Below, one piece after another: positions 43,921 to 64,000 of a DNA stretch of 64,000 nucleotides. The DNA lies in the NCBI GenBank assembly GCA_031270465.1, contig JAISXP010000088.1, positions 667 to 64,666 on the forward strand, in the 5' to 3' direction. Made by a program: the position numbers and the translations under genes. The number at the start of each line of letters is the position of its first letter. Position 1 is the first letter of the stretch. Under the pieces are notes generated by a model. It searched no databases. It had not been told where the DNA came from and saw only the letters and a list, made by a program, of their open reading frames with translations. This DNA comes from Tannerella sp. (GTDB taxonomy: Bacteria > Bacteroidota > Bacteroidia > Bacteroidales > Tannerellaceae).

Positions 43921-44502
43921 ATGATTACACCCGGCGAAATCTTCTCGAAATCGGATTTCGGTACGTTTTATAATACCTACTATAAGCGTTTCATCCGTTA
44001 TGCCTGTTACTATGTGGACGATGTCCGGACGGCCGAAGACCTCACGCACGACGCGATTCTGTACTGCTGGGAAAACAGAAGCAAACTGCCTCCCGATACC
44101 GACATGCTGGGATACGTCCTGTCGGCCATCAAGAACAAATGCCTGAATCACCTGAAGCACTTGCAGATCGAAGCCGAATACGGCCGGCAGTGTATCGAAC
44201 TGTACGAATGGGAAATCAATGCGCGTATCATGACACTCGAAGACGAGCATTACAACGACATTTTCGCGAACGAAATCAAGCGTATCGTGCGAAGCGCGCT
44301 GGCACAACTCCCCGAGCAGACGCGCCACATCTTCGAACAGCACCGCTTCAAATTCAGGTCGCGACGGGAAATCGCCGACGAGTTGGGCGTCTCGCTGCAA
44401 AAAGTCGACTATCATATCAACAAGGCTACCCGACATCTGTACAATGAGTTGAAAGACTATTCACCCCTCTTTGTCATTTTTTTTCAAATTTTTTTCGGTT
44501 AG
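43921..44502 (+). CDS. ECF RNA polymerase sigma-70 factor
   Basis: Region 2 (YKRFIRYACYYV...AEDLTHDAILYCWE) and region 4 (REIADELGVSLQKVDYHINKA). Confidence 0.9.
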   Translation: MITPGEIFSKSDFGTFYNTYYKRFIRYACYYVDDVRTAEDLTHDAILYCWENRSKLPPDTDMLGYVLSAIKNKCLNHLKHLQIEAEYGRQCIELYEWEINARIMTLEDEHYNDIFANEIKRIVRSALAQLPEQTRHIFEQHRFKFRSRREIADELGVSLQKVDYHINKATRHLYNELKDYSPLFVIFFQIFFG

Positions 44503-44558
44503 CGTTTGGGATTTTCGGTCTCTGAGTTGTTCTACTGTTGGAACCAAAACCAAATGGG

Positions 44559-45494
44559 ATGAAGATAGACCGTCATCTGCTTGTCCGTTATTTTCTGGGA
44601 CGCTGTTCCTCAGAAGAGAAGGAAATCATCCGCCTGTGGCTGGAAAGCGGCGAGGCGCACCGGCAAACGTTTGTCCACGAGCGCATCCGCTTTGATGCGT
44701 CCGTGGCGATGAGTGAAACCGGCCTTCCGCAGCAACAGCCCGTCCGTGCGAAAAGCGTCGCTTTGACCCTGCTGAAAGCAGCCGCCGTCGTCCTGCTGCT
44801 GGTCGGCAGCAGCTACTTCTTCAATCTTTATCGTACTCTGCCGGTGAAATCCGCCATGCAAAGCCTTTACGTCCCGCCGGGAAACCGGGCGTTCCTCACC
44901 CTGCCGGACAGCAGCAGCGTATGGCTGAATTCCAATTCGACGCTCAGCTATCCGGCTGCGTTCGACGGTAAGGCGCGGACGGTAGAACTGGATGGCGAAG
45001 CCTATTTCGAAGTCGCGAAACGCAACGGACAATCCTTTGTCGTGAAAACCGAAAAGTATCACGTCGAAGCGTTGGGAACCTCCTTCAACGTCGACGCCTA
45101 CGCCGGCAAACCGGATTTCTCCACCACCCTGTACAGCGGAAAAGTGATTCTCTACAACGAACAGAGCCACGAACCTCCGCTCTGTCTCAATCCCGGAGAA
45201 TCGGCTGCACTGACCCACGATTTGCTGCAGGTATCGCCCATTAAAACAGGCGATTCTCACTGGCGCGAAGGACTGATTGTCATCGAAGACCGCACGTTTG
45301 AAGAAATCATGCAGCTCTTCGAAAAATATTTCGGACAGCAGATTGTTGTCGAAAACAACAGGGTAAAAACGCTCAGCTACCGCGGCAAACTCCGCATAGC
45401 CGACGGCGTCGAACATGCTCTCAGAGTGTTGCAAAAAGATTTTCGTTTCGCTTACCGGCGCGATGAGGATCTGAATATCATCCGTATCCATTAA
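44559..45494 (+). CDS. FecR family anti-sigma factor
   Basis: Single TM segment (LLKAAAVVLLLVGSSYF) and a FecR domain (LPDSSSVWLNSNSTLSY...ELDGEAYFEV). The start is placed at the ATG at 44559. Confidence 0.9.
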   Translation: MKIDRHLLVRYFLGRCSSEEKEIIRLWLESGEAHRQTFVHERIRFDASVAMSETGLPQQQPVRAKSVALTLLKAAAVVLLLVGSSYFFNLYRTLPVKSAMQSLYVPPGNRAFLTLPDSSSVWLNSNSTLSYPAAFDGKARTVELDGEAYFEVAKRNGQSFVVKTEKYHVEALGTSFNVDAYAGKPDFSTTLYSGKVILYNEQSHEPPLCLNPGESAALTHDLLQVSPIKTGDSHWREGLIVIEDRTFEEIMQLFEKYFGQQIVVENNRVKTLSYRGKLRIADGVEHALRVLQKDFRFAYRRDEDLNIIRIH

Positions 45495-45711
45495 CATGAA
45501 AATTTTTCAGCCATGAAAGTAAACCTGGACTCCAGTTGATGAAAGAAAAAAGAACCGGCAGCGCAGCAACGCTTACCGGCTCATAACAGGCGCATTCTGA
45601 GAGAATATACCTATTTACTAATAAAACACTTACAAAGATATGAATAAAATTTTTATACCGGAGATATTATTGCGGAGTAATATCGGCAAATGTCTCCATT
45701 TTAACAAAATT

Positions 45712-48700
45712 ATGAAACTGACGATTTGTTTTTGGCTTCTGTTTTCCGGTCTTGTTTTTGCCGGAAACGCCAATTCGCAAAACGCAAGGGTAAGCCTGAA
45801 CATACAGCAGGCGCTACTCAAGGATGTATTGGAAGAGATTGAGCGGCAGACGGATTACCTCTTTATTTCGAACACGGAGGTCAATCTGGAGCGCAAAGTC
45901 TCCGTACGTGTAAAGAACATGCCCGTGCGCGAAGTGCTCGACCGGCTGTTCAAAAATACCGACCTCTCCTACGAAGTGGAAGGCGTCAACGTGATCATTA
46001 CGAAAAGAGACGCTCTGCCCGAAACGATTGTCGCACCACAGCAAACAGGTAAACGCATCTCCGGCACGGTAGTCGACGAAAAAAACGAGCCGGTCATCGG
46101 GGCGAATGTCCTCGAAAAAGGCGTGGCGACAAACGGCACCGTGACCGATGTGAACGGGTATTTCTCGCTGACGGTGGCGGACAATGCCGTCTTGCAAGTC
46201 TCCTTTATCGGATATATCACGCAGGAAATCCCGGTAAAAAAGCAACTGAATTTTACTGTCACACTGGCGGAAGATCTACAAAAATTAGAAGAAGTTGTTG
46301 TTGTCGGTTACGGCACTCAAAAGAAAGTAAATCTTACCGGTTCAGTGTCCAGTGTCAATTCGGATTTGTTGGATAGCCGTCCCATTACTCAGGCTTCTCA
46401 AGCTCTTTCCGGACTGGCAGCCGGTGTGACGGTTCGTCAATCAAGCAGTCGTCCGGGCAGTGATGGAAGCACTATTCGTATTCGCGGCTTGGGAACCTTT
46501 TCCAGTGCAGGTTCCAGTCCATTGGTATTAATTGATGGTATGGATGCTTCTTTCGATGATATTGATCCTGCTAATATCAAGTCGATTTCTGTGTTGAAAG
46601 ATGCAGCCTCCGCCTCTATTTATGGTACCAGAGCTGCCAATGGAGTAATTCTGGTAGAAACCAAAAAGGGACAACAAGGTAAAATCCAGATTAGTTACAA
46701 CAACTATTTTGGATGGCAAAAAGTAAGCGAATTACCAGATTTTGTCGACTCCTGGGAGTATGCCGTACTACGAAATGAAGCAAATAAGAATCAAGGACGA
46801 GGGATCACTTATACGGAGGAAGAAATTGAGCTTTTCAGGAGCGGATCGGATCCGGACAACCATCCGAATGTTCCCCATTTGAAAAATCTCCTGACATCTA
46901 ATTCCGGTTTTCAGACGAACCATAATGTAAGTTTTACTGGAGGCAATGATAAAATACAATATCTTTTTTCTACCGGATATTTATATCAGGATGGCGTTGT
47001 TACGAAGAACTATTACGACAGATATAACTTCCAGCTGAATATTGATAACCAATTGCTTAGTAATCTAAAGATTCATACTAACATTGGCGGATATGCGTCT
47101 GACCGGCACGAGCCTCGACATGGTGATGGCGATATGACGAATATGATTAATTTCGCAGTACGTGAAGGGCCTCAGTTCGCAGGAAAAAAATTGGACGGAA
47201 CATTTGGCTATCAAGACAACTACTCGCCAGAGGCATGGCTGGATAGTGAATCGTTTATGAGGTATCGCAAAAATCAATTTATGGGAAGTGCTGAGCTTGA
47301 ATGGGAAATCCTTTCAGGATTATCGGTCAGCGGAAAAGCTGGATATAAACACTATAATCGTCTGCAGAAGGACTTTGTGGCAAAAGTGGAATTCGATGAA
47401 TATAAGACTTATGCGCCAAACAAACTTTACATTGATAACGAATTCATCAACTTAGTTCAATTGCAGGCTTTAGCTCATTATAACAAAGCATTTGGATATC
47501 ATAAATTGGGCGTTTTGTTGGGAGTCTCGCAAGAAGAATATAAACAGGAATGGTACAAAGCTTATCGTCAGAATTTTCCGAATAATTCTTTATATGAGTT
47601 GGACGCCGGCAGTAAAGACGGGATGAGCAACGAAGGTTCCGGGCAGGAGTATGGGTTGCGTTCGTTTTTGGGAAGGATAAATTATTCATATAAAGAGCGC
47701 TATTTGGCGGAAATAAATGCTCGTTATGACGGAACGTCCCGTTTTCCGAAAAATAACAGATGGGGACTGTTTCCTTCCGTATCATTAGGATGGCGGATTT
47801 CAGAAGAAAGCTTTATCCAGGACAATGCGGCATGGATTGATAATTTAAAACTCAGGGCTTCATGGGGACAGTTAGGAAACCAGAATATTGGTTATTATCC
47901 CTATCAAAGCGTGTTGAGTAATCAGAATTATACGTTTGGAGGGACGGTTGCGTCTGGTTTAGCCACAGTCAACTATGTAAACAGGGATATTTCATGGGAG
48001 ACAACAACGATTACCGATATTGGAATAGATTTCTCTTTTATGGATGGGTTATGGGATATTACGATGGATTATTTTGTTAAGAAAACAAGTGATATTTTAT
48101 ATGGTGTAGCCAGTTCTGCAGTATTAGGTTTATCTACATCCGAAAGTAATAGTGCGGATGTTAGTAATAAGGGTTTTGAAGTTATGGCTTCATACAGCCC
48201 CCGTATTGGAGGATTTAAACTATGCATAACTCCCAATTTCTCTTATGTAAAAAATGAGGTAACTAATTTGGGAGGGGGTATTACTGCTGATTATGGAAAC
48301 AATTTGTTTGTAGGACAGCCGATTAATGCGATTTACGGATACGTGGCAGATGGTTTATTCGTGGACCAGGCCGATATTGACAGCTATGCCAGTCAACCCT
48401 ATAGCGCAGAACGTGGTTTTGTAAGATATAAAGACTTGGACGGCGATGGTGTAACAGATGCAGGTAACGATCGGAAAGTGTTGGGTAGTACGATGCCTAA
48501 ATATACTTATGGATTGACTTTGTCAGCTGATTACAGGAATTTTGACGCTGTGATTATTCTGCAGGGATTAGGAGGGCATAAACAAAGATTAGGATCTTAT
48601 CAGGGATATGCTTTTTATAATAGCGGACAGATTCAGGCTTGGCAAGCTGATAATCGTTGGACGGAAGAGAATCCCGACAGAAACGCGGCTTATCCGAAAT

Positions 48701-48975
48701 TAACATCACTCAATGATAATGCAGGAACGATTATGACTTCTACTTATTGGATCCGGAATGCATCTTTTTTACGCGCAAAAAATATTCAAATTGGATATTC
48801 ACTACCTCAAAGTATGCTGGAGAAGATTAAATTAAGCCAATTCAGGGTATTTTTCAGTGGACAAAACTTATTCTGTATTAATTCTTCTTATCCGGGTTGG
48901 GATCCTGAAATCAGTTCAGGAAACTTTTATCCGGTCACCGCGACTTACACTTTTGGGCTTAATATCAAATTTTAA
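45712..48975 (+). CDS. SusC/RagA family TonB-linked outer-membrane transporter with N-terminal STN signalling domain
   Basis: STN domain (VSLNIQQALLKDVLEEIERQTDYLFISN...VNVIITK), CarboxypepD_reg domain (ISGTVVDEKNEPVIGANVLEKG...GYFSL), plug (VVVVGYGTQKK...IRIRG) and a C-terminal ...YTFGLNIKF. Confidence 0.92.
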   Translation: MKLTICFWLLFSGLVFAGNANSQNARVSLNIQQALLKDVLEEIERQTDYLFISNTEVNLERKVSVRVKNMPVREVLDRLFKNTDLSYEVEGVNVIITKRDALPETIVAPQQTGKRISGTVVDEKNEPVIGANVLEKGVATNGTVTDVNGYFSLTVADNAVLQVSFIGYITQEIPVKKQLNFTVTLAEDLQKLEEVVVVGYGTQKKVNLTGSVSSVNSDLLDSRPITQASQALSGLAAGVTVRQSSSRPGSDGSTIRIRGLGTFSSAGSSPLVLIDGMDASFDDIDPANIKSISVLKDAASASIYGTRAANGVILVETKKGQQGKIQISYNNYFGWQKVSELPDFVDSWEYAVLRNEANKNQGRGITYTEEEIELFRSGSDPDNHPNVPHLKNLLTSNSGFQTNHNVSFTGGNDKIQYLFSTGYLYQDGVVTKNYYDRYNFQLNIDNQLLSNLKIHTNIGGYASDRHEPRHGDGDMTNMINFAVREGPQFAGKKLDGTFGYQDNYSPEAWLDSESFMRYRKNQFMGSAELEWEILSGLSVSGKAGYKHYNRLQKDFVAKVEFDEYKTYAPNKLYIDNEFINLVQLQALAHYNKAFGYHKLGVLLGVSQEEYKQEWYKAYRQNFPNNSLYELDAGSKDGMSNEGSGQEYGLRSFLGRINYSYKERYLAEINARYDGTSRFPKNNRWGLFPSVSLGWRISEESFIQDNAAWIDNLKLRASWGQLGNQNIGYYPYQSVLSNQNYTFGGTVASGLATVNYVNRDISWETTTITDIGIDFSFMDGLWDITMDYFVKKTSDILYGVASSAVLGLSTSESNSADVSNKGFEVMASYSPRIGGFKLCITPNFSYVKNEVTNLGGGITADYGNNLFVGQPINAIYGYVADGLFVDQADIDSYASQPYSAERGFVRYKDLDGDGVTDAGNDRKVLGSTMPKYTYGLTLSADYRNFDAVIILQGLGGHKQRLGSYQGYAFYNSGQIQAWQADNRWTEENPDRNAAYPKLTSLNDNAGTIMTSTYWIRNASFLRAKNIQIGYSLPQSMLEKIKLSQFRVFFSGQNLFCINSSYPGWDPEISSGNFYPVTATYTFGLNIKF

Positions 48976-48995
48976 TTATCTTAAAAGGAATTTTT

Positions 48996-50621
48996 ATGAA
49001 TACAACAATAAAAAAAACAGTGAACATTATATCATTTATAATTGTTTTAGTACTCCCATTACAAGGATGTTCGGATCTCTTTGACAAAAATCCGTTGAGT
49101 CAACCTTCCGACGGAACCTTCTGGAATAATGAAAACGATGCTTATATGGCATTAGTCGGTTGTTATAATATCGGAGGAGAATGGAGATCTCAATGTTTCT
49201 GGAATCCAGACGGTGTGATTTATCTGGACTTGATGGCAGGAAACGGTTCCGAAAAAGAGTCGAGAACCGATGATGTTACGAATGGAAATTTAAATTCAAA
49301 TAATTGGGTAACAGCCAGCTATTATAATCAGGCATACGAAAAAATTGCTCGTTGCAATAATTTTCTGGAACATATTGACGAAGTAGACATGGATGCCGAA
49401 AAAAAAGCCGAGTTTGCCAGCGAAATCCGCACACTTCGAGCTTATACCTATTTGAATCTGGCATTATATTTCGGAGATGTTCCCCTGACTACCAAAAACC
49501 TGACATTGGAAGAAGCAAATACGATTGTACGTACGCCTCGTAGTCAGGTCTGGGATTTTGCTGCGGCAGAATTGGAAGAAGCTGCAGTTGGTTTGCCTTG
49601 GACGCGCAGTAATACCGAAAATGGACGTATTACTGCAGGAACAGCGCTATCTTCTTTAGGAAGAATACAATTAGCTCAAAAAGACTGGGTTGCTGCCGCT
49701 GCTACCTATAAAAGGATCATTGATTCTAAAGCGCATATCATAGAAATGGTGCCGTTTGTAGAATTATTCTATTCTTCTAATGAGCTTAGCAGGGAGTTTA
49801 TTTACGCGACCCAATATACAGCGGATACTTACGCACATGTATTCACTGTATATGTTTTTCCGGAGAAATGGGGAGGATGGCATCAATATTCACCCTATAA
49901 TGAGTTTGTAAAAGATTTTCTATGTATAGATGGCCTTCCCATAAAAGAATCGCCTCTGTATAATAAGGATTTTCCGTATGAAAATCGAGATCCGAGACTT
50001 CTTCAAACAGTCATGATTGATGGCTATACTGAATTTAGAGGTGACACTTATGTTTCTTATCCGGGATCCGGCGCTCCGGATGACGTAACGAAATATATAC
50101 AGTGGAGCGGTTATTCCATCCGGAAGTTTATGGATCCGGAAATGAATGCCGACTTGTATAATTCAGGGAATAATTTTAGCTTAATCCGTTATGCGGAAGT
50201 ATTATTGAGTTATTTAGAAGCAAAGTTGGAAGCTGGGGATATGATAGACCAGGAATTATTGAATCTTACGATCAATCCGATTCGCCAGCGAGCCGGTATG
50301 CCGGGTGTGACGGAAACGGATCGGGACAAACTCCGGGAAATTGTGCGTCGTGAACGTCGAATAGAACTGGCATTTGAAGGCGTACGTTATTTTGATGTGT
50401 TGCGATGGGATATCATTGCGGACGAACTGGAAAACCGTCAGTTTACGGGTATGAAAGTGGCAACCAGTCCTTCTACAAATACAACAAATTATGAGGTAGA
50501 TGATGAAGGTTATATCCTTTATAAGAAAACGAACTTTAAAAGAGGTATAAATGAGTTATGGCCTATTCCTCTTTCTGAGATAGAAATTAATCCGAATATG
50601 AGGCAAAATAATGGATATTAA
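48996..50621 (+). CDS. RagB/SusD family nutrient-uptake outer-membrane lipoprotein
   Basis: Lipoprotein signal (LPLQGCSD), and RAYTYLNLALYFGDVPL...ERRIELAFEGVRYFDVLRW. Confidence 0.92.
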   Translation: MNTTIKKTVNIISFIIVLVLPLQGCSDLFDKNPLSQPSDGTFWNNENDAYMALVGCYNIGGEWRSQCFWNPDGVIYLDLMAGNGSEKESRTDDVTNGNLNSNNWVTASYYNQAYEKIARCNNFLEHIDEVDMDAEKKAEFASEIRTLRAYTYLNLALYFGDVPLTTKNLTLEEANTIVRTPRSQVWDFAAAELEEAAVGLPWTRSNTENGRITAGTALSSLGRIQLAQKDWVAAAATYKRIIDSKAHIIEMVPFVELFYSSNELSREFIYATQYTADTYAHVFTVYVFPEKWGGWHQYSPYNEFVKDFLCIDGLPIKESPLYNKDFPYENRDPRLLQTVMIDGYTEFRGDTYVSYPGSGAPDDVTKYIQWSGYSIRKFMDPEMNADLYNSGNNFSLIRYAEVLLSYLEAKLEAGDMIDQELLNLTINPIRQRAGMPGVTETDRDKLREIVRRERRIELAFEGVRYFDVLRWDIIADELENRQFTGMKVATSPSTNTTNYEVDDEGYILYKKTNFKRGINELWPIPLSEIEINPNMRQNNGY

Positions 50622-53917: not shown

Positions 53918-55042
53918 ATGGCCGAAGATAAACGCATATACCTGATAGGACTGACACAGTTGAAAGGCATCGGCGACATGCTTGCCCGCCAGTTGCTGCA
54001 TTATTTCGACAACGAAGCGCAGGAAGTTTTCGCCGCAAAGAAACAGACGCTCGAAAAAATACCCGGTATAGGCGCTGTCAAGGCGGAAGCCATCATGCAG
54101 TCGAAAGCGGAAGCGCTACGGAACGCCGCGAAAGAACTCGCTTTCGTGGAAAAAAAGAAACTCCGCCTGTTTTCGATTACGGACGAAGACTATCCTGTCC
54201 GTCTGTGCGAATGTCTGGATGCTCCGGTTGTGTTTTACTATACGGGCAGCGCCGATTTGAATGTGCAGCGTGTGCTGAGCATCGTCGGGACGCGCAGCGC
54301 TACCGATTACGGCGAAAAACTGACGGGACTGCTGCTGAAAGAACTGTCGGAAATGTTTTCCGGACTGCTTGTTGTCAGCGGCCTGGCGTACGGCATCGAC
54401 ATCTGTGCGCATCGGAGCGCCGTGAAATTCGGATTGCCGACCGTGGGCGTGCTGGCGCACGGTCTGGACAGACTTTATCCCTCTTCGCACCGCAAGACGG
54501 CCATCGAAATGCTTGAACAGGGCGGAGGCCTGCTGACGGATTTTGTCAGCGGAACAGTTCCCGGCCGCGAGAATTTCCTGCAGCGCAACCGTCTGATTGC
54601 AGGACTGTCGGATGCGACCATCGTCGTCGAATCGGCCGAAAAGGGCGGAGCGCTGGTTACGGCCGACATCGCGCTCTCGTACGGACGGGAGGTTTACACT
54701 TTCCCCGGACGAGTCTCCGACCGCTATTCGGAAGGATGTAACCGGCTGATACATACAAATAAGGCCGGACTGATAACCTCCGCCCGTGACCTCGTGGAAG
54801 CGCTTAACTGGGATTTGAAAGGACGGAAACAGGCTTCGCAACAGCCCTGCCTCGCGTTTGCAAATGAACTGCCACGGTCGCCCGTGCTGGATGTGATTGC
54901 CGAAAAGAAACAGATTCAAATCAATGAACTGTCTCTGCTGCTGGATATTCCCGTACATCAACTGTCGCCCGTGCTGTTCGAACTGGAACTTGCGGGATAC
55001 ATCCGGGCCATTCCCGGAGGCGCTTACAGACTGAATTTTTAA
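53918..55042 (+). CDS. dprA: DNA-processing protein DprA
   Basis: VGTRSATDYG...SGLAYGIDICAHR...QRNRLIAGLSDATIVVESAEKGGAL. Confidence 0.9.
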   Translation: MAEDKRIYLIGLTQLKGIGDMLARQLLHYFDNEAQEVFAAKKQTLEKIPGIGAVKAEAIMQSKAEALRNAAKELAFVEKKKLRLFSITDEDYPVRLCECLDAPVVFYYTGSADLNVQRVLSIVGTRSATDYGEKLTGLLLKELSEMFSGLLVVSGLAYGIDICAHRSAVKFGLPTVGVLAHGLDRLYPSSHRKTAIEMLEQGGGLLTDFVSGTVPGRENFLQRNRLIAGLSDATIVVESAEKGGALVTADIALSYGREVYTFPGRVSDRYSEGCNRLIHTNKAGLITSARDLVEALNWDLKGRKQASQQPCLAFANELPRSPVLDVIAEKKQIQINELSLLLDIPVHQLSPVLFELELAGYIRAIPGGAYRLNF

Positions 55043-55128: not shown

Positions 55129-56790
55129 ATGAAAATCAATCTGCGAATAAGAGAGCGGAAACTGCAACTGTTTTTCCTCGCATACATATTAATGCTTGTC
55201 CCGACGATCAGCCTCGTCGCCCAGAACATTCCGGCCGGCGCCGTAATACCGGGCATATTTGCAAGCATCGGACTGTCTGCCGTGATTTTTATTCTTACGA
55301 CATTCATGGCCACGAAGTGTTTGCGCATCTTCTATTTCGTGCTGCTGGCCGTCACGCTGATTCCCGGCGCAGTTTTGCTTGGCTATTTGCTGTTTGCCAA
55401 AGTACTGCTTTCCGAAGGTTCGCTGATGACTCTGTTCGAAACAAACGCCGACGAGTCAAAAGAGTTTATCGTCCACTACATGAATCCGTGGATTACCCTG
55501 GGAATGGCGCTGTATATTCTTGTTCCGGCGGTATTCATTTTCAGGATGAAGAACAAGGCGCGTCCCGGCATAAGAGAACATAAGAAGACATTTACCGCGA
55601 GCCTTCTGCTTCTTTTTCTGTTTCTGGCAGTCGAGCCGGTTGCTCAACACATATATTTTGTTGACTTCTATCGCATTTTCGCCGATTATAAAATACGTAT
55701 GGCCACGGAGGAGAAGGCCATCGATTCGCGGCAGAAGCAGCCGTTCGATGTTGTCCTGTCCGAAGACGAAGCGCCACAGACGCTCGTCGTGGTGATAGGC
55801 GAATCGTTAACGCGCCATCACATGTCGCTGTACGGATACGGACGCGATACCAGCCCGTTGCTGACAGCGCGTAAACAGTCGCTGACGGTGTATCGGGATG
55901 TCGTTTCGCCACAGGCACATACAATACCCGTGATGCGTTCCATCCTGACTTTTGCCGACGAAATGCATCCCGAATATCTGACTGCCCGTCCGTCGCTGTT
56001 CGAACTGTTCAATCGCGCGGGATACGAAACATGCCTGATAAGCAACCAGCCGCTTGGCGAAAGCGGTTCAAGCTACGAGCCGTTTTTGCGACTGGCAAGC
56101 CGCACAACAGACCTGTCCGGGACGGACGAGCCGGACGGCGTGCTGCTGGAAACACTCGAACAGGCACTGAAAAGCGACAGACGCAAACTGATAGTCATTC
56201 ATCTGATGGGTAGCCATACGGTATACAAATTTCGTTATCCCCCGTCGTTCAATCGTTTCAATCATCTCGTCCAGCCGCTTCCCGGACAGAAAGACCGGTT
56301 GACGACAAACGCGCTGGAAACAATCGATCAATATGACAATTCCGTATTGTACAACGATTTTGTCATCGCCGGCATAATAGATCTGATGGAGCGGAAAAGC
56401 GAACCGTCGGCAATGATATATTTTTCCGACCACGGTGAAGAAGTGTTCGACTTCCGCAATTTTACGGGACATGCTTTCGAAAAAATATCCGTCTACATGT
56501 GCGAAGTACCGTTTATCGTCTGGATCTCCGACGAGTTCGGCAGGAAACGCAAAGATTTGATTTACGAAGAAGAACGTCCTTTCTCCACAACAGACGCGCT
56601 CCACAGCCTGGCCAACATGGCAGGGCTGAATTTCGAAGGGTACGACGCAAGCCGGAGCCTGTTTTCGCCTCACTTTGTCCCTCACAAGCGAAACGTAGGC
56701 GATTTGACATACGACGACGTAAAAATACGGACGGCGGAAGAAAAAATAAAAGAAAGCGCCAGCCGTGCGCGGGAGGAACAGGGGCTTTGA
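55129..56790 (+). CDS. Phosphoethanolamine transferase-like membrane sulfatase-family protein
   Basis: About five N-terminal TM segments followed by a sulfatase domain (LVVVIGESLTRHHMSLYGYGRDTSP...IHLMGSH..Y). Confidence 0.75.
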   Translation: MKINLRIRERKLQLFFLAYILMLVPTISLVAQNIPAGAVIPGIFASIGLSAVIFILTTFMATKCLRIFYFVLLAVTLIPGAVLLGYLLFAKVLLSEGSLMTLFETNADESKEFIVHYMNPWITLGMALYILVPAVFIFRMKNKARPGIREHKKTFTASLLLLFLFLAVEPVAQHIYFVDFYRIFADYKIRMATEEKAIDSRQKQPFDVVLSEDEAPQTLVVVIGESLTRHHMSLYGYGRDTSPLLTARKQSLTVYRDVVSPQAHTIPVMRSILTFADEMHPEYLTARPSLFELFNRAGYETCLISNQPLGESGSSYEPFLRLASRTTDLSGTDEPDGVLLETLEQALKSDRRKLIVIHLMGSHTVYKFRYPPSFNRFNHLVQPLPGQKDRLTTNALETIDQYDNSVLYNDFVIAGIIDLMERKSEPSAMIYFSDHGEEVFDFRNFTGHAFEKISVYMCEVPFIVWISDEFGRKRKDLIYEEERPFSTTDALHSLANMAGLNFEGYDASRSLFSPHFVPHKRNVGDLTYDDVKIRTAEEKIKESASRAREEQGL

Positions 56791-56911
56791 CACAATTATG
56801 CCTGCAAATTTCGCATTTATGTAATTTTTAACACATAAATCATAGGGTTTTCGGCGCCCAAACAATCATGTATGTAAACGAAAGAATTATTCACCCATAA
56901 AAAAAACGACA

Positions 56912-58180
56912 ATGAAAACAAAACATTTGATGGCCATGTCGCTGGCGTGTATACTGTTTGTTCTTGACGGACTGCATACTGCCGTGGCGCAGAACGGCGA
57001 AGATTATTTTACGGTTTCAGGCATCGTGAAAGACGCCCGAAGCAAGAAGGAAATGGAGTATGTCAGCGTCTCGGCCGTGGGAACGAGTATCGGCACGGTC
57101 ACGAACGAAGACGGCGCTTTTACACTCAAACTGAGCAATACCACCGAGGTAAAGGAAATTGAATTCTCGTGCATCGGGTACTACAATGCACGCATCACCA
57201 TTACGGGCAGGAACATGAAGGAACAAACGTATCTCATCATTCCCGAATCGTTCCAACTGAGCGAGATAGAGATATTCAGTTGGAAAAATCCGCGCGACCT
57301 GATCATGGCTGCGCTGGACAAACGGCCCGACAACTATCCCGCGCAGCCGAACCTGCTGACGGGCTTCTATCGCGAAACGATTCAGAAGCGGCGCAAGTAT
57401 ATCAACATCTCCGAAGCAGTGATGCACGTCTACAAAAGCCCGTACACGACGAATGCGTCGAGCGACCGTATCCGCATCCTCAAGGGGCGCAAATTAGTCA
57501 GCCCGAAAATGAGCGATACGCTGAACGTGAAACTGCTCGGCGGCCCCAACATGGCCGCATACGTCGACATTGTCAAGAATCCCGACATACTGCTCGACGC
57601 CGAGATGCTGCAATACTTCTCGTACAAGATGGGCGAAACCACCTCCATCGACGGACAACTGCAGTTCGTCGTCCACTTCGAGCCGCAGGCGGCGCTTCCC
57701 TGGCCGCTTTATTCGGGAACGTTCTACATCGACCGCGAGACACTGTCCTTCACGCGCGCCGAATTTAGCATGGACATGAAAGACAGACTCAAGGTCATCG
57801 ACCTTATATTGAAGGAAAAACCCGCCGGACTGCGTTTCACCCCCGAAGAAGTATCCTATATCGTCACATACAAGCAGCGCAACGGAAAGACCTGCCTGAA
57901 CTACATCTATAACAAAATAAGGTTCAAGTGCGACTGGAAACGCCGGCTGTTCGCAACCAACTACACCGTGGTGGGCGAAACGGTGATAACGGACAATCAG
58001 ACCGAAAACGTGGAAAGAATCCCCGCACGGGAAGCATTCTCCATGCGCCAGTCGCTTAGCCAGGAGGTCTCCGCATATTTCGACGACGATTTCTGGGGAG
58101 CCTACAACATCATCGAGCCGACCGAATCTTTGGAAAATGCAGTAAGCCGGTTGATGAAACAGCAGAACAAATCAAAATAA
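56912..58180 (+). CDS. Carboxypeptidase-regulatory-like domain protein (STN-less paralog of 59639..61195)
   Basis: Signal peptide, then a CarboxypepD_reg domain (FTVSGIVKDARSKKEMEYVSVSAVGTSIGTVTNEDGAFTLKL). A ~300-aa uncharacterised domain follows, beginning LLTGFYRETIQKRRKYINISEAVMHVYKSPY. Confidence 0.75.
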   Translation: MKTKHLMAMSLACILFVLDGLHTAVAQNGEDYFTVSGIVKDARSKKEMEYVSVSAVGTSIGTVTNEDGAFTLKLSNTTEVKEIEFSCIGYYNARITITGRNMKEQTYLIIPESFQLSEIEIFSWKNPRDLIMAALDKRPDNYPAQPNLLTGFYRETIQKRRKYINISEAVMHVYKSPYTTNASSDRIRILKGRKLVSPKMSDTLNVKLLGGPNMAAYVDIVKNPDILLDAEMLQYFSYKMGETTSIDGQLQFVVHFEPQAALPWPLYSGTFYIDRETLSFTRAEFSMDMKDRLKVIDLILKEKPAGLRFTPEEVSYIVTYKQRNGKTCLNYIYNKIRFKCDWKRRLFATNYTVVGETVITDNQTENVERIPAREAFSMRQSLSQEVSAYFDDDFWGAYNIIEPTESLENAVSRLMKQQNKSK

Positions 58181-58186
58181 AAGCCG

Positions 58187-58194
58187 TACATTTG
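58187..58194 (+). promoter_or_regulatory. Bacteroidetes-type -7 promoter box (TAnnTTTG)
   Basis: TACATTTG, 29 nt upstream of the ECF sigma ATG at 58224. Confidence 0.5.
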
Positions 58195-58223
58195 TTTCGC
58201 TCGAAATAAAATGTGACGCAGCC

Positions 58224-58778
58224 ATGCTAAACGACTTTTTGCTGTTCGGAAAGATAAAAGACGGCGACATAAAAGCTTTCGAAACGCTCTTCCGCCTCTA
58301 CCATGCCCCGTTGTGCCTCTACGCATCGGGCATCACGGGGCGGCGCGACGTGGCGGAAGACATCGTTCAGGATCTCTTTTATCTCATCTGGAAAACGCGC
58401 GCGACGATGCAGATACACCGCTCGGTCAAGAGCTACCTGTACGGCGCGGTCAAAAACCGGTCGTTGCTGTATCTGGAACACATGCTGGTTCGCGAACAGT
58501 ACGAAGCGCTCGCGCTGAACGAAACCGATACGGCCGCCGAACCGGATCCGCACGAACAGATGGAGTATGCCGAACTGGAAGCCGTCGTCGAACGGACGCT
58601 GGCCGGACTGCCCGAACGGCGGCGGCGCATCTTCCGCATGAACCGCATGGAAGGACAAAAATACAGCGAAATAGCCGGACGGCTCGCCATTTCGATCAAA
58701 ACGGTCGAAGCCGAGATGGCCAAAGCCTGCCGGCAGCTGCGACACGATGTTGAAATATATTACAAAAGCAAATCATGA
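58224..58778 (+). CDS. ECF RNA polymerase sigma-70 factor
   Basis: Region 2 (FETLFRLYHAPLCLYA...AEDIVQDLFYLIW) and region 4 (YSEIAGRLAISIKTVEAEMAKA). Confidence 0.9.
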   Translation: MLNDFLLFGKIKDGDIKAFETLFRLYHAPLCLYASGITGRRDVAEDIVQDLFYLIWKTRATMQIHRSVKSYLYGAVKNRSLLYLEHMLVREQYEALALNETDTAAEPDPHEQMEYAELEAVVERTLAGLPERRRRIFRMNRMEGQKYSEIAGRLAISIKTVEAEMAKACRQLRHDVEIYYKSKS

Positions 58779-59632
58779 TTAGAGAATATGAACAAATGAT
58801 GACTGACCGCGCGTGGGACAGTCTGCACGAGCGGCTGTCGCGCGACGGCCTGCTCCCCGCCACCCCCACATCTCCACCATCCGTCACGCGCACATGGCTT
58901 CGTCCGGCCGGCATCGCTGCCATGCTGGCCATCGTCGCCATGCTCGGGTGGCGGGCGATGCGGCAGCAAGACGGCACGACGCACGACATGCGCGTCATGC
59001 ACAACGAAGAAAGCGGCTCCACGCTGGTATCCATGCTCGAAGACGGCTCCGTCGTCTACCTCTCAGGCGAAACGTCTATCCGCTACCCGCACCGCTTCGA
59101 CGAAGGCCGGCGCGAAATCACCCTCCGCGGCGACGCTTTCTTCGACATCAACAGCAACCACGAACGGCCGTTCGTCATCGACACCGAACCGGCCACGGTC
59201 GAAGTGTCGGGCACCGCCTTCGGCATACGCAACAGCGACCACCAGACCTTCGCACTCACCGTGCGTCAGGGCGAGGTCAGAGTGACTCTGAAAAAGAACC
59301 GCCAGACCGCTCTCGTTCAGGCCGGACGCACGGCACGGCTGCAAGCCGGACGCCTGATATTGACGGACAGCGGTGCACAAGCAGCGGACGATGACCTCAT
59401 GCAGCGCATCCATTTCAAGGACGAACGCCTCGTCGACGTGGCACACATCCTCAACAGGCACACACGGCCGGTGCAGATCGAAATCGACCCCGAACTGGCA
59501 GACCGGAGGCTGACGGTAGCCTTCGCCGGCGACGATGCACACACGATGGCACGGCTCATCTGCCTCGCACTCGGACTCCGGCTTTCGCAGAGCGGACAGA
59601 CCATATACATTCAACCGGATGCCAGCGACTGA
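58775..59632 (+). CDS. FecR family anti-sigma factor
   Basis: ATGA overlap with the sigma gene. TM segment (PAGIAAMLAIVAMLGW) and a FecR domain (LEDGSVVYLSGETSIRY...TLRGDAFFDI). Confidence 0.85.
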   Translation: MIREYEQMMTDRAWDSLHERLSRDGLLPATPTSPPSVTRTWLRPAGIAAMLAIVAMLGWRAMRQQDGTTHDMRVMHNEESGSTLVSMLEDGSVVYLSGETSIRYPHRFDEGRREITLRGDAFFDINSNHERPFVIDTEPATVEVSGTAFGIRNSDHQTFALTVRQGEVRVTLKKNRQTALVQAGRTARLQAGRLILTDSGAQAADDDLMQRIHFKDERLVDVAHILNRHTRPVQIEIDPELADRRLTVAFAGDDAHTMARLICLALGLRLSQSGQTIYIQPDASD

Positions 59633-59638
59633 CCGGCG

Positions 59639-61195
59639 ATGATGCACTTCCTCACCCGCAGCATTGCCGCGTGCTTACTGACGCTCATCTGCGTCGTGAA
59701 TGTACGGGCAGAGGGAGACGGTGACACACCGCCTCTCGATCGACGCATACGCCTTGCCGCCCGTAAAGGCACCGTCTATCGCCTCCTGAAAGAAGTCTCC
59801 GCACAATCCGGATTCCTGTTCATCTACGATAGCCGCACCGTCGACAACGACCGCCGCTCAAGCATTGCCAAAGGCGAATACACTCTGCGCGACGCCATCC
59901 TCATCATCACCCGCAAGCCCGCCCTGCAAATCGACGTCCAGGGCAACTACATCCTCCTGCGCCCGGCCGCCACCGGCAGCCCTCCGCCGCCGGCCACCAC
60001 CGAACCGTCCGGCACGGCAATCATCCAGGGCTCGCTGCATGACCTCGAGACCGGAGAACCCGTCGTATACGCAACCGTCAGCCTGATAAATACTTCCATC
60101 GGCACCGTTACCAACCACAGCGGCCGGTTCCGCCTCACCGTGCCCGACTCGCTGCGCTACGCCGACGTGAGGTTCTCGCACATCGGATACGAGAGCCGCG
60201 AAACAGGCGTCGCCCTCCTCGACGGACAGACGGTCGACTTCGCCCTCGAACCTAAAGTCGTCCCCCTGCAGGAAATAGAAATACGGCGAATCAATCCCCT
60301 CCGCGAAATACACGACATGCTCGACCGCCGCAGCGAAAACCATCCGCAGACGCCTACCGGCCTGACCACCTTCTACCGCGAAGGCATCGAACACCGCCGG
60401 CGCGTCATCGACCTCTCCGAAGCCGTACTGGAAATATACAAAACAGGATACGGCGCCGATGCCTCCGGCGACCATGTCCGCCTCGTGCGAAAGCGACATG
60501 TCTCCCGCGTGCAGCCCGGTGACACCATCCTGCCCAAAATGAAGTCGGGCATCAGATCGTGCCTTATCCTCGACATCATGAAGGAACTCCCCGAATTTAT
60601 CACCCCGGACGACGGCACACGCTACGACTACGTGCACGAAGACATCCGCACAGTCGACGATCGCCTCGTCAACGTCATATCTTTCAAACAGAAACCGCAT
60701 ATCGACGAACCGCTCTTCACCGGCGAACTTTTCATCGACGACCGTCGCAAAGCGCTCGAGGAAATACGCTTTCAGGTCAGCCCCGAACATGCCGGCAAGG
60801 CTACCAACCTCTTCGTCGACCGCAAGGCGCACCATCTGAAACTCACCCTCCGCCAGGCAGCATACATCGTCTCCTACAAACCTCTTCACCCCGCATCGCC
60901 ATACTATATCAGCCACGTGCGAGGCGACATCATTTTCAGAGTAAGAAAAAAAGGACACCTCTTCAGCACACCGCTGCACTTCTGGTTCGAAATGGTCACG
61001 TGTCGCACCGACACCGCCGGCGTCCGCCCCATCCCGCGCGCCGAAAGACTCGCGACCGGACAAATCTTCGCCGACACCGCGCATGACGGCGACGAAGACT
61101 TCTGGGAAAATTTTAACATCATCCTCCCCGAAGAAAAACTCATGGAAGCAATCATCAGCAGTCTTAGCGAAGCCGTTGTGCAGGCCGGACAGTAA
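59639..61195 (+). CDS. Stand-alone STN plus carboxypeptidase-regulatory-like domain protein (no TonB-dependent barrel)
   Basis: Signal peptide, then an STN-like domain (GTVYRLLKEVSAQSGFLFIYDS...NYILLRP) and a Pro-rich linker. Next comes a CarboxypepD_reg domain (IIQGSLHDLETGEPVVYATVSLINTSIGTVTNHSGRFRL). The final domain is paralogous to 56912..58180 (LTTFYREGIEHRRRVIDLSEAVLEIYKTGY). Confidence 0.8.
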   Translation: MMHFLTRSIAACLLTLICVVNVRAEGDGDTPPLDRRIRLAARKGTVYRLLKEVSAQSGFLFIYDSRTVDNDRRSSIAKGEYTLRDAILIITRKPALQIDVQGNYILLRPAATGSPPPPATTEPSGTAIIQGSLHDLETGEPVVYATVSLINTSIGTVTNHSGRFRLTVPDSLRYADVRFSHIGYESRETGVALLDGQTVDFALEPKVVPLQEIEIRRINPLREIHDMLDRRSENHPQTPTGLTTFYREGIEHRRRVIDLSEAVLEIYKTGYGADASGDHVRLVRKRHVSRVQPGDTILPKMKSGIRSCLILDIMKELPEFITPDDGTRYDYVHEDIRTVDDRLVNVISFKQKPHIDEPLFTGELFIDDRRKALEEIRFQVSPEHAGKATNLFVDRKAHHLKLTLRQAAYIVSYKPLHPASPYYISHVRGDIIFRVRKKGHLFSTPLHFWFEMVTCRTDTAGVRPIPRAERLATGQIFADTAHDGDEDFWENFNIILPEEKLMEAIISSLSEAVVQAGQ

Positions 61196-61796
61196 TGCAC
61201 CCCGTGCAGGGCAAAACACGCATCCTGTGAATAAAAAATAATTACACACAACAGACAAGCCGGCAAAAATCTGTCAGTCAATCATGAAAGCCCGTCGCCA
61301 CACCCATATCCGCAGGCCGTTTGCCGTTGCGGCATCACTTTTTTTTTCGATACCCGCTTGCCGTTTTAAAAAAAAGCACTATCTTGCGCCCGATTTGAAA
61401 CAGACAGGACAAAAAAATGATTTCGAACATGAAAAATATCAACGCCGGCGACGCACTCCTCCCCTCTCGCCTCTCCGGATGTAAAAAAACGCTAATGGGG
61501 GGGGGTATTTTACTGTGTTTCAATAAGATAAGATACAATATACCTTGTGCACGGAGGACATGCAGTGCATCGTCCGGCCGCCAACAAGGAAACTCTGTTT
61601 TCTGTTCACTCATTATTTTTTATGTATTTGCCCGGGAAAGAGACCTTCAAAGTCTCTTTCCTGCGGCTTTTGCCGTGCATCCGCGTGCGGTACGGTCGGC
61701 CAGTACGGTTAAAAATGTAGAACCAGACAAATATATCTACTATCTATTTTAGTATCAATGAAAAGTTTTAATGTTTAATCACAAATTAATTTATGT

Positions 61797-64000
61797 ATGA
61801 AAGAAAAAGAAAAATTCAAAACAGAAAGAAGTCTGTCCGGCCGCAGGCGAATGACATGGGCGATTGCCCTGCTGGCAAGTTTCAGCATGACGACCGCATT
61901 CGCACAACTGACGGTGAAGGGTAAAATCCTCGACGAAACGGGCGAAACGGTTATCGGTGTCAACATCCTCGAAAAGGGGACACTGAACGGGACCGTATCC
62001 GACATGGAAGGAAACTACTCGATTACCGTACAAGACGGGCAGCGGGCAGTACTCCAGTTCTCGTACGTGGGTTACAATACGCTCGAAGAAGACGTCAACG
62101 AGCGCAGCGAACTCAACGTCACGCTCGAACCGTCGGTAGTAAACCTCGGCGAAGTGGTAGCCATTGGTTACGGTACGCAGACGCGCCGCCAGATCACAGG
62201 CTCGGTAGCCAACGTCTCGGAAGAAAACTTCAACAAGGGTATCACACGCGATGCGGCAGACCTGCTGCAGGGCAAGGTGGCCGGGCTTACCATCACGAGC
62301 GGCTCGGGCGACGTCACCCGCGGCAGCCAGATCCGCCTGCGCGGTACTTCCACCCTGCAGAACGACCAGGGGCCGATGATCGTAATCGACGGCATTCCGG
62401 GCGGCGACATGTCGACCGTCGCGCCTTCGGACATCGAATCGATCTCCGTCCTCAAGGACGCTTCCTCGCAGGCCATCTACGGCTCGCGGGCAGCCGGCGG
62501 CGTCATCCTGATTACCACCAAGCGCGGATCGGGAATGAAATCGCAGATTACGTACGACGGATATGCTTCGGCAGACTTCGTCGCCAACAAGCCTCACCTG
62601 CTTAGCGCCACCGAATGGCGCGACGTCAACCGCCAACTCGGCAAAGACGTCAGCAGTTTGGACCGCTACGGAGCCGAAACCGACTGGCTGGGCGAAATGC
62701 TGCGCACCGGCTTCTCGCAAAATCATGCCGTCTCCATGTCCGGCGGAGGCTCGAAAAACAACTACCGCGCCTCGTACACCTACCTGGATCGCAACGGCAT
62801 CGCACGCGACAACTACATCACGCGCCACAGTTTCCGCTTCCAGTTCCAGCAGCGCGCCATCAACGACCGCCTGCGCATCGACCTCACCGGCTCGGCTTCT
62901 CTCTCCGACATGCGATTCCCCTTCCGCGACGACTTTGTCCTCGCCTACAACCTGCCGCCGGTTTATCCCGTCAAGGTGGATGGCAACTGGTTTACCGACA
63001 TGTTCGGGAACTACGACCAGGGCAATCCCGTCCAGAATCAGGATGAAAACTACAATCTCAGGAAGCACAACTACTTTTATGGCGCCGGCAATGTGCAATT
63101 CGATATCATGGAAGGGTTGAACGCGAAAGCACATTTATATAAGAGTGTGTTTAGCAGTGACCGCAGCCAGTGGTTAGCCCCGACAAACTCCCGCGGACGC
63201 GGAACCAATGGTCAGGCCGAGAGGGAAGCCTCCACCATGGAGCGCGACTTGATGGAGTGGACATTTAATTACAACAAAGAGTTTAACAACAAACATTCGG
63301 TCGACGCCATTGCCGGTTATTCCTGGGAAATCAATACATACCAGAACCAGTATTCCCAAGCGACCGACTTTGCCGTTACTTCGATGGGCGCCAATAATAT
63401 CCAGAGCGGCAACACGCTCAAGGTGGGCGAGGTAACCTCTTCTAAAAACGAGTACAAACTGATATCGTTCTTCGGTCGCGTCCATTACGGCTATGCCGGC
63501 AAGTACATGGCTACGGCCACGGTTCGCCGCGACGGTTCTTCCAAGTTCGGCGCGAACCACAAGTGGGGTCTCTTCCCCTCCGTCTCCGCCGCATGGGGCA
63601 TCACGCAGGAAGACTTCCTGAAAGACGCAAGCTGGATCAACGACCTGAAACTGCGTGTCGGATACGGCGTAACGGGTAATCAGGATGGTCTCCAGCCCTA
63701 CAAGACGCTCGAACTTTATGAAGCCTACGGCACCTATTACAACAACGAATCGGAGTCCATTGCCTATCGCGTTTCGCAGAATGCCAACCCCAACCTGAAA
63801 TGGGAAGAAACCGCCATGTTGAACATCGGACTGGACTTCTCCCTCTTCAACGGGCGCTTGGGCGGAACGATCGAATGGTACGACAAACGGACCACGGACA
63901 TGATCTACCGCTACGCCGTGCCAACTCCGACCTTCGTATACGACCGCATCTATGCCAACGTGGGCGACATGCTCAACACCGGTATTGAGTTGCTGCTGAA
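61797..64000 (+). CDS. SusC/RagA family TonB-linked outer-membrane transporter lacking an STN domain (partial; continues past the right window edge)
   Basis: Absent from the ORF track because it has no stop in the window. My translation from the ATG at 61797 is open to 64000: MKEKEKFKTERSLSGRRRMTWAIALLASFSMTTAFAQLTVKGKILDETGETVIGVNILEKG...VVAIGYGTQTRRQITGSV...IRLRGTSTL.... Track ORF 61791..63134(-) is its antisense shadow. Confidence 0.9.
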   Translation, partial: MKEKEKFKTERSLSGRRRMTWAIALLASFSMTTAFAQLTVKGKILDETGETVIGVNILEKGTLNGTVSDMEGNYSITVQDGQRAVLQFSYVGYNTLEEDVNERSELNVTLEPSVVNLGEVVAIGYGTQTRRQITGSVANVSEENFNKGITRDAADLLQGKVAGLTITSGSGDVTRGSQIRLRGTSTLQNDQGPMIVIDGIPGGDMSTVAPSDIESISVLKDASSQAIYGSRAAGGVILITTKRGSGMKSQITYDGYASADFVANKPHLLSATEWRDVNRQLGKDVSSLDRYGAETDWLGEMLRTGFSQNHAVSMSGGGSKNNYRASYTYLDRNGIARDNYITRHSFRFQFQQRAINDRLRIDLTGSASLSDMRFPFRDDFVLAYNLPPVYPVKVDGNWFTDMFGNYDQGNPVQNQDENYNLRKHNYFYGAGNVQFDIMEGLNAKAHLYKSVFSSDRSQWLAPTNSRGRGTNGQAEREASTMERDLMEWTFNYNKEFNNKHSVDAIAGYSWEINTYQNQYSQATDFAVTSMGANNIQSGNTLKVGEVTSSKNEYKLISFFGRVHYGYAGKYMATATVRRDGSSKFGANHKWGLFPSVSAAWGITQEDFLKDASWINDLKLRVGYGVTGNQDGLQPYKTLELYEAYGTYYNNESESIAYRVSQNANPNLKWEETAMLNIGLDFSLFNGRLGGTIEWYDKRTTDMIYRYAVPTPTFVYDRIYANVGDMLNTGIELLL

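Follow-up and report, generated by a model that had tools for sequence, protein, structure and literature searches.

The described systems that come closest to the locus reported here are the SusC-type transducers of those Bacteroides polysaccharide utilization loci (PULs) that have an extracytoplasmic function (ECF) sigma factor and its anti-sigma factor (model in PMC7782687), the FecA–FecR–FecI type, and the PUMA3 system of Pseudomonas aeruginosa, whose VreA is a mostly soluble, periplasmic protein of 23 kDa that consists of an STN domain and a domain resembling the C-terminal domain (CTD) of TolA/TonB, and is encoded with the sigma factor VreI and the FecR-like regulator VreR (PMC2729926). 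The locus lies in a 64,000-nucleotide stretch of Tannerella sp. DNA (contig JAISXP010000088.1, positions 667 to 64,666), which is called the window below. It is a cassette of four genes on one strand, in which an ECF sigma factor and a FecR-type anti-sigma factor are flanked by two paralogs, A and B. Only B has an STN domain, and neither paralog has the plug and barrel of a TonB-dependent transporter. The order A–sigma–FecR–B is a self-contained, conserved unit of Bacteroidales. Another point of comparison is RseB/MucB, a periplasmic LolA-like protein of an ECF sigma/anti-sigma operon, which couples the lipid or lipopolysaccharide (LPS) status of the envelope to proteolysis of the anti-sigma factor.

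Relation to the described systems

Like the SusC-type transducers, the cassette has an ECF sigma factor and a FecR beside a protein built from STN, the N-terminal extension (NTE) and a TonB-box-like strand, and the first ~190 residues of the SusC of another sigma/FecR locus of the window (locus 1, 43921..50621) align colinearly with B (29% identity, E=6e-12). It differs from these transducers in having no plug, 22-strand barrel, SusD or PUL context, with a LolA-like domain instead, and in having an STN-less paralog upstream of the sigma gene, a shorter FecR, and diverged FecR_C and STN domains. Plug, barrel and SusD were tested for and are absent, thus the cassette is not a member of the SusC-type transducer family; nor does it contain the conserved SusC–SusD pair with a regulator that defines a PUL. 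With the FecA–FecR–FecI type it shares a FecI-like sigma factor, a single-pass FecR with the Gly-Thr site and the STN of the receptor, but not the plug and barrel.

VreA, compared here by its description, resembles B in that STN is kept, the barrel is absent, and the gene is encoded with an ECF sigma factor and a FecR-like regulator. Unlike B, it ends in the TolA/TonB-CTD-like domain and has no NTE, LolA-like domain or paralog, whereas the cassette has an NTE, a TonB-box-like strand in the canonical position and a paralog pair. PUMA3 also differs in its gene order (vreA-vreI-vreR), in being proteobacterial and in controlling many virulence genes. RseB/MucB has a LolA-like domain, as is predicted for A and B, and is likewise encoded beside an ECF sigma/anti-sigma pair, and the E. 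coli RseB structure 2p4b is among the Foldseek matches; however, STN, NTE and TonB box are all missing from RseB, which works with RseA in place of a FecR as anti-sigma factor, and the template modelling score (TM-score) is only ~0.25. Members of the LolA superfamily (LolA, LolA3 9tp6, DUF1329 4z48, NE2245 3buu) are the best structural matches of the C-terminal domain of A and B, but this domain exceeds them in size (~300 aa), has a conserved DxxFWxxFN motif near its C-terminal end and occurs joined to NTE and STN, and the likeness is remote and at the level of the fold.

The features of the locus are the following (residue numbers are those of the respective protein):

56843..56870, + strand: promoter-like motif TAGGGTTTT-N11-CAATCATG, 41 nt upstream of the ATG of A
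56912..58180, + strand: gene A, 422 aa, STN-less paralog with signal peptide
57008..57256, + strand: A, residues 33-115, NTE (CarbopepD_reg)
57257..57274, + strand: A, residues 116-121, TonB-box-like LSEIEI
57284..58066, + strand: A, ~residues 125-385, predicted LolA-like domain
58082..58132, + strand: A, residues 391-407, conserved C-terminal motif DxxFWxxYNIIEPTESL
58224..58778, + strand: ECF sigma factor of the Bacteroidetes FecI-like type, 184 aa (TIGR02985, 165 bits; Sigma70_r2 and r4_2)
58775..59632, + strand: FecR-type anti-sigma factor, 285 aa (PF04773, 58 bits); cytoplasmic part of ~42 residues, transmembrane helix ~43-60, FecR domain 80-169, diverged FecR_C-like domain 212-279 (16.6 bits, below the cut-off of 24.4)
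59210..59215, + strand: FecR, invariant Gly146-Thr147 site
59639..61195, + strand: gene B, 518 aa, STN-bearing paralog with signal peptide (residues 1-24)
59744..59962, + strand: B, residues 36-108, STN (the Pfam match, 60-110, spans the full model)
B residues 109-125, + strand: proline-rich linker
60014..60265, + strand: B, residues 126-209, NTE (CarbopepD_reg match 129-213)
60266..60283, + strand: B, residues 210-215, TonB-box-like LQEIEI
60296..61012, + strand: B, residues 220-458, predicted LolA-like domain (no Pfam family over ~300 aa)
61091..61141, + strand: B, residues 485-501, conserved motif DxxFWxxFNIILPEExL, followed by a C-terminal helix
61316..61345, + strand: terminator-like hairpin with T-run, ~120 bp after the stop codon of B
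61797..64000, + strand: STN-less SusC/RagA-type TonB-dependent transporter, running off the window end and judged to be outside the module

An earlier note on this DNA had drawn the open reading frames (ORFs) and domains of the cassette, had called locus 1 canonical, and had proposed that in the cassette the STN contact module sits on a separate barrel-less family with an STN-less paralog, beside sigma and FecR. The reading frames and domains were all recovered as drawn, and the proposal is borne out by the data given below. In locus 1 the STN of the SusC scores 44.7 bits and the FecR_C of the FecR 45.1 bits, and a SusD gene follows downstream, in keeping with a canonical locus. The sigma factor of the cassette is 28% identical to that of locus 1. 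The cassette FecR is shorter at its cytoplasmic end, with ~37 fewer residues ahead of the transmembrane helix than its canonical counterpart in locus 1, and its total length (~283-285 aa) is constant across genera.

Conservation of the cassette and of a motif upstream of A

A search of 185,579 species-representative genomes turned up relatives of B in 245 of them, and 80 genome loci were kept for the comparison of gene order. All named organisms among them belong to Bacteroidales, and they include Tannerella metagenome-assembled genomes (MAGs) from termite gut, Dysgonomonas, Parabacteroides distasonis, P. goldsteinii, P. gordonii, Bacteroides graminisolvens, Phocaeicola sartorii, Prevotella, Muribaculaceae and Rikenellaceae. 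The complete order A–sigma–FecR–B on one strand is present in 75 of the 80 loci, with the sigma and FecR genes overlapping or abutting. Three of the other five (L008, L045, L079) end at a contig edge, and the remaining two (L063, L082) lack only the FecR match. The same order was found on two full-length metagenome contigs (L001 and L003). Members of the A family are uniformly ~420 aa long and are more conserved than B in the same relatives (60-70% vs ~50% identity). In the FecRs of the cassette the V-x-G-T-x-F sequence with Gly146-Thr147 is invariant (82 of 82 sequences); Gly-Thr is the self-cleavage site of FecR (Gly181-Thr182) and of FoxR (PMC9249621). Public databases annotate A and B only as 'carboxypeptidase-like regulatory domain-containing protein', 'membrane protein' or 'hypothetical protein'. 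Two loci, L006 and L015, come from the same Tannerella sp. MAG, Gsp477_bin28, and encode B proteins that are 72% and 53% identical to B of the window, showing that the cassette can be multi-copy.

The neighbourhood of the cassette is not conserved. When the neighbouring ORFs were clustered, no family besides the four cassette genes occurred in more than 7 of 83 loci, and no TonB, barrel, LPS or Lol genes recurred near the cassette in this survey. In the window the gene directly upstream (55129..56790, +) encodes an EptA-like phosphoethanolamine transferase (Sulfatase PF00884, 135 bits, and EptA_B_N), and although this is an envelope-modifying enzyme, it is not kept beside the cassette in the other loci. 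Farther upstream lies the gene of DprA (DNA processing protein A; 53918..55042, +), which is unrelated to the cassette. A search of Rfam over 56000..64000 gave no match.

Of 76 cassette loci, which come from different genera, 57 have the sequence TAGGG-N15-17-GATC ~40-70 nt upstream of the start of A, and these sites yield the fuller consensus (C)ATAGGGT[AT]TT-N11-CGATC[AT]TA (TAGGGTWTT-N11-CGATCWTA). The copy in the window, TAGGGTTTTCGGCGCCCAAACAATCATG, has two mismatches to this consensus and is unique in the 64 kb when up to three mismatches are allowed. Further conserved words, 'AGTACAA' and 'TTATTCACC', occur between the motif and the ATG of A (56871..56911 in the window; 5' untranslated regions of L001-L083). 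The exact motif was found at no fewer than 120 sites in metagenome contigs; among the matches listed, 77 precede an A-like gene (median distance 72 nt), 15 are one recurrent unrelated sequence, 14 lie within 400 bp of a contig end and 14 are singletons, and no second recurrent target was seen among these listed exact matches. The recurrent unrelated sequence, AGCTTTCTTAGGGTATTGCAGACAAGCACGATCATATCC, fits the promoter pattern exactly and is present in at least 15 human-gut contigs (L091, L097, L098, L100, L101 and others). No A-like gene follows it, and it was set aside as a probable coincidental match, multiplied by the abundance of its host organism.

The bipartite shape of the motif and its CGATC-type downstream element resemble ECF promoters. 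That the motif marks almost only this cassette suggests autoregulation, and it may well be the promoter of the cassette's own sigma factor, in which case A would be the first product.

The transducer-like head of B and the domain shared with A

The match of B to the STN family of Pfam is below the gathering score (16.3 bits vs 28.4, E=0.0088). Several observations nevertheless show that this STN, which the earlier note had recognized, is diverged but real. In 48 of 66 relatives of B the STN model (PF07660) was matched at E<=0.05, with a best E value of 1.4e-7. A hidden Markov model (HMM) was built from the N-terminus of the B family (residues 30-112) and searched against a set of 1,940 ORFs, drawn from the window and from the loci retrieved for comparison. 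Besides the 85 B proteins it recovered the STN regions of three SusCs linked to sigma/FecR, and nothing else: that of L044 (E=2.7e-7), the window SusC at 45640 (residues 53-126, E=9.9e-5) and that of L023 (E=8.4e-4). The SusC at 61797 was not matched in this search. The colinear BLASTP alignment with the STN and NTE of the locus 1 SusC, mentioned above (29% identity, E=6e-12), covers residues 28-188 of B. In the AlphaFold2 model of B (mean pLDDT 83.6) the N-terminus resembles the FecA signalling domain 1zzv (TM-score 0.67), with PilQ N0 and DotD also matched, and the middle domain resembles the crystal structure of a SusC NTE, 9hfj (TM-score 0.82). The diverged FecR_C of the partner and the diverged STN of B would fit a specialised, co-evolved pair.

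With regard to domain order, STN precedes NTE both in the locus 1 SusC (45640..48975; residues 75-120, then 140-221) and in B (60-110, then 129-213). The reverse order, NTE before STN, was stated for SusCs by Gray et al. 2021 (PMC7782687).

The strand that directly follows the NTE in A and B (LxE[VI][VI][VI]) aligns on the TonB box of SusC, the aligned strands being 'PLQEIEI' in B, 'QLSEIEI' in A, and 'KLEEVVV' and 'NLGEVVA' in SusCs. In Bt1763 the TonB box, VDEVVV, was defined by experiment and is immediately after the NTE (PMC7782687). In the B set, comprising the B proteins of 83 related loci and of the window, Q211 is conserved in 81 of 84 and E212 in all 84 sequences, with V or I nearly always occupying the three positions that follow; in the A set (n=81) L116 is kept in 80 and E118 in 73 sequences. 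In the model of B the strand is part of an unstructured linker that joins the NTE to the LolA-like domain. Retention of this strand suggests that both paralogs may engage TonB. From signal peptide through STN, linker and NTE to the TonB-box-like strand, B is colinear with the periplasmic N-terminus of a SusC-type transducer. As read from the sequence, the signal peptide of B has neither a lipobox nor a beta-signal. In A the NTE is recognized as CarbopepD_reg_2 (residues 35-119, 53 bits in Pfam).

Downstream of the TonB-box-like strand the likeness to SusC ends. The paralogy of A and B is evident from an alignment of 380 aa with 30% identity (E=7e-54), and they have in common a C-terminal domain of ~300 aa, as the earlier note had seen. 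In A no Pfam family was matched over this region except for a faint match of LolA_like (15.5 bits vs the cut-off of 30). LolA_like (PF17131) was the sole faint Pfam match to recur, in 4 of 17 domain sequences as well as in A and in P0361. The latter is a metagenomic representative of 901 aa with STN, NTE and two tandem LolA-like domains. It was considered as a Rosetta stone for the A–B pair, but neither of its domains can be assigned with clarity to the A or the B type, and it is therefore no evidence for the pair. P0384, which looks like A joined to a C-terminal region of unrelated sequence, may owe its structure to a fusion made in gene calling and was left unused. A link to DUF5686 was also dropped: PF18939 gave faint matches to four B proteins out of 66 and to one domain sequence out of 17, and none to ten further members.

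In a model of the domain alone (pLDDT 79.6, pTM 0.79), helices are inserted among ~11 long strands in antiparallel arrangement. The best Foldseek matches of the domain in the PDB all belong to the LolA superfamily, with probabilities of 0.96-1.0 and E values down to 2e-6. They include NE2245 3buu (E=2e-6), DUF1329 4z48, 3bk5, E. coli RseB 2p4b (E=8.6e-5), P. gingivalis LolA3 9tp6, LolA 8cgm and E. coli LolA 6f3z, and the lipid-binding sheets of lipovitellin and MTP are also among the matches. In contrast, porins reached a probability below 0.3 and TM-scores of 0.12-0.20. Neither Plug nor TonB_dep_Rec was matched in A or B, and TIGR04056 gave only 37 and 29 bits vs the cut-off of 368. The domain that A and B have in common is no cryptic TonB-dependent barrel, in line with the barrel-less nature attributed to B at the outset; judged from the models, it is an undescribed family with a remote LolA-superfamily-like fold. 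In B a beta-rich, LolA-like domain of ~300 aa thus takes the place of the plug and the 22-strand barrel, and A has the same arrangement without STN.

An exhaustive profile search with the C-terminal domain yielded 2,397 representatives at 50% identity, 558 of them at E<=1e-30. Among the best 150 of the 2,397, almost all are either ~415-435 aa (A-type) or ~505-540 aa (B-type) long, the remainder being fragments apart from two unusual proteins. In both families conservation is highest at the motif DxxFWxx[FY]N[IV]IxPxExL, which is near-invariant in 81-84 sequences and may be a partner-binding peptide or a lid.

A probable non-transporting sensor and its alternatives

Taking these data together, we hold, with moderate confidence, that this is a self-contained, probably autoregulated envelope-signalling cassette, in which B is a barrel-less, non-transporting sensor of the cell-surface-signalling type. 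B would be an exported receptor that does not transport, and its LolA-like domain would bind an envelope or periplasmic ligand; the modelled fold suggests that the ligand is amphipathic. The STN of B would touch the diverged C-terminal domain of the cassette FecR, and this contact would set off a proteolytic cascade on FecR, in which the Gly-Thr site is kept, and free the sigma factor, as in cell-surface signalling. The freed sigma factor would then drive the motif upstream of A, giving more A, sigma, FecR and B. A would be an STN-less output or partner protein, and both paralogs would engage TonB through their TonB-box-like strand.

Several points weigh against such a sensor. The STN of B and the FecR_C of its partner are both below threshold (16.3 of 28.4 and 16.6 of 24.4 bits), which indicates that the contact pair has diverged. 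The likeness to LolA proteins is remote (TM-scores 0.30-0.43, rmsd ~10-12 Å), no Pfam family reaches its cut-off in the C-terminal domain, and searches of the PDB with whole-family and domain profiles revealed no sequence relatives of this domain, the matches being to NTEs or mere noise. Among the residues that both paralogs keep invariant, many are charged (FYRE, D63, R71, D80, K100 and others), and these are atypical of an acyl-chain cavity. The DxxFWxx[FY]N motif falls in the low-pLDDT tail of both models. Finally, the regulon scan used the exact motif, from which even the window copy deviates at two positions, and it would miss diverged targets.

An RseB-like mode of action, which we regard as doubtful, would reverse the role of B. 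In such a mode B, and perhaps A, would shield the periplasmic part of FecR from cleavage until an accumulating envelope intermediate, be it LPS, a lipoprotein or a lipid, occupies the LolA-like domain and dislodges B, so that the cassette would be an envelope-stress sensor like sigmaE–RseA–RseB. The presence of RseB 2p4b among the Foldseek matches, the lack of conserved nutrient-uptake neighbours and a regulon that, among the exact motif matches listed, seems confined to the cassette are all compatible with it, as is the EptA-like lipid A modifier directly upstream in the window, though this gene is not conserved elsewhere. However, the RseB match is weak (TM-score 0.22-0.25), and the STN, NTE and TonB-box parts belong to activating transducers. 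Activation and protection are not told apart by the present data.

It is improbable, in our estimate, that A and B are chiefly effectors, that is, periplasmic carriers or enzymes for an envelope or dietary compound, with the STN of B giving feedback on product or occupancy only. The stronger conservation of A, its place as the first gene behind the conserved motif, and the charged residues (FYRE, D, K, R) invariant in both paralogs would agree with such a role, and some enzymes with a LolA-like fold likewise have charged invariant residues. On the other hand, A and B contain neither a catalytic motif nor a match to an enzyme family, and sequence alone does not separate an effector role from that of a sensor. 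Still less probable is a transport function in which the shared domain would form a small beta-barrel in the outer membrane or would act in trans as the plug of an unlinked barrel. The domain is indeed beta-rich, with ~11 long antiparallel strands, porins do appear far down the Foldseek list, and the TonB-box-like strand stands ahead of the domain, just as in SusC it stands ahead of the plug; but the porin scores (probability <0.3, TM-score 0.12-0.20) contrast with the 0.96-1.0 of the LolA superfamily, A and B end in an amphipathic helix without a C-terminal aromatic beta-signal, no Plug or TonB_dep_Rec was matched in them, and no partner barrel is conserved nearby.

The earlier note had offered a choice between a three-component sensor, formed with the SusC at 61797, and a sensor that does not transport at all. 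The latter fits the data. The SusC at 61797 is an ordinary STN-less SusC with a full-length match (TIGR04056, 628.8 bits vs the cut-off of 368; SusC_RagA signature, 65 bits), composed of NTE (40-121), TonB box, Plug (130-236) and barrel. That it has no STN, as the note had claimed, was confirmed: none was detected in it at E<=0.1 by domain search, and an in-frame stop codon at 61776-61778 leaves no room for an STN upstream. The gap between B and this SusC (61196..61796, 601 bp) has a GC content of 43%, vs 57% in the cassette and 56% in the SusC gene, and contains only a junk-looking ORF of 111 aa. The hairpin at 61316..61345 is probably the end of the cassette transcript, although in a scan for terminators and generic sigma-70 promoters the counts did not exceed the shuffled expectation. 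No cassette motif was found upstream of the SusC at up to three mismatches. In the closest relatives, at 87%, 72% and 61% identity, the genes downstream of B encode PorV (on the opposite strand), PurL and a 3-keto-disaccharide hydrolase (also on the opposite strand), respectively. Since a SusC is absent beside even the closest relatives, the SusC at 61797 is a mere neighbour and not a third component. The idea that B lends its STN to this SusC, and that the sigma factor controls it, is hardly tenable, for apart from same-strand adjacency in the window and a SusC ~530 bp downstream in L024 it has synteny against it in almost all of the 80 loci, together with the lack of any recurrent neighbour family, the AT-richer 601-bp gap with its terminator-like hairpin and the missing motif. 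The co-occurrence in other genomes that the note had suggested checking, of sigma/FecR, a barrel-less STN protein and an STN-less SusC, holds for A–sigma–FecR–B (75 of 80 loci) but not for the SusC, which lies within 600 bp downstream of B in only 1 of ~80 loci.

A bolder version of the favoured sensor reading, which seems to us rather unlikely, would make A and B TonB-coupled periplasmic proteins rather than transporters of the outer membrane, in which the signalling head of a SusC was rebuilt onto a LolA-like client-binding domain. TonB, driven by the proton motive force, would then act on B as a soluble or peripheral sensor and on A as its inducible partner, and the cassette would be an envelope-surveillance or carrier counterpart of sigmaE–RseA–RseB.

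A search of the full-text literature revealed no published description of this architecture, and VreA of Pseudomonas was the only precedent found (PMC2729926). The concept of a barrel-less STN receptor was already known from VreA. Bacteroidota genomes encode ~20 ECF sigma factors each (PMC7826278). FecR-linked sigma factors are usually taken as regulators of SusC/SusD uptake, and the cassette departs from that view as a widespread FecR-type system tied to no transporter. It represents a natural split of the signalling half of a transducer (STN, NTE and TonB box) from the transport half. As such, it offers a clean system for asking what the unexplained NTE does and whether TonB acts on non-barrel proteins, it supplies a candidate promoter for reporter assays, and it is present in the culturable gut species Parabacteroides distasonis, P. 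goldsteinii, Dysgonomonas mossii and Phocaeicola sartorii.

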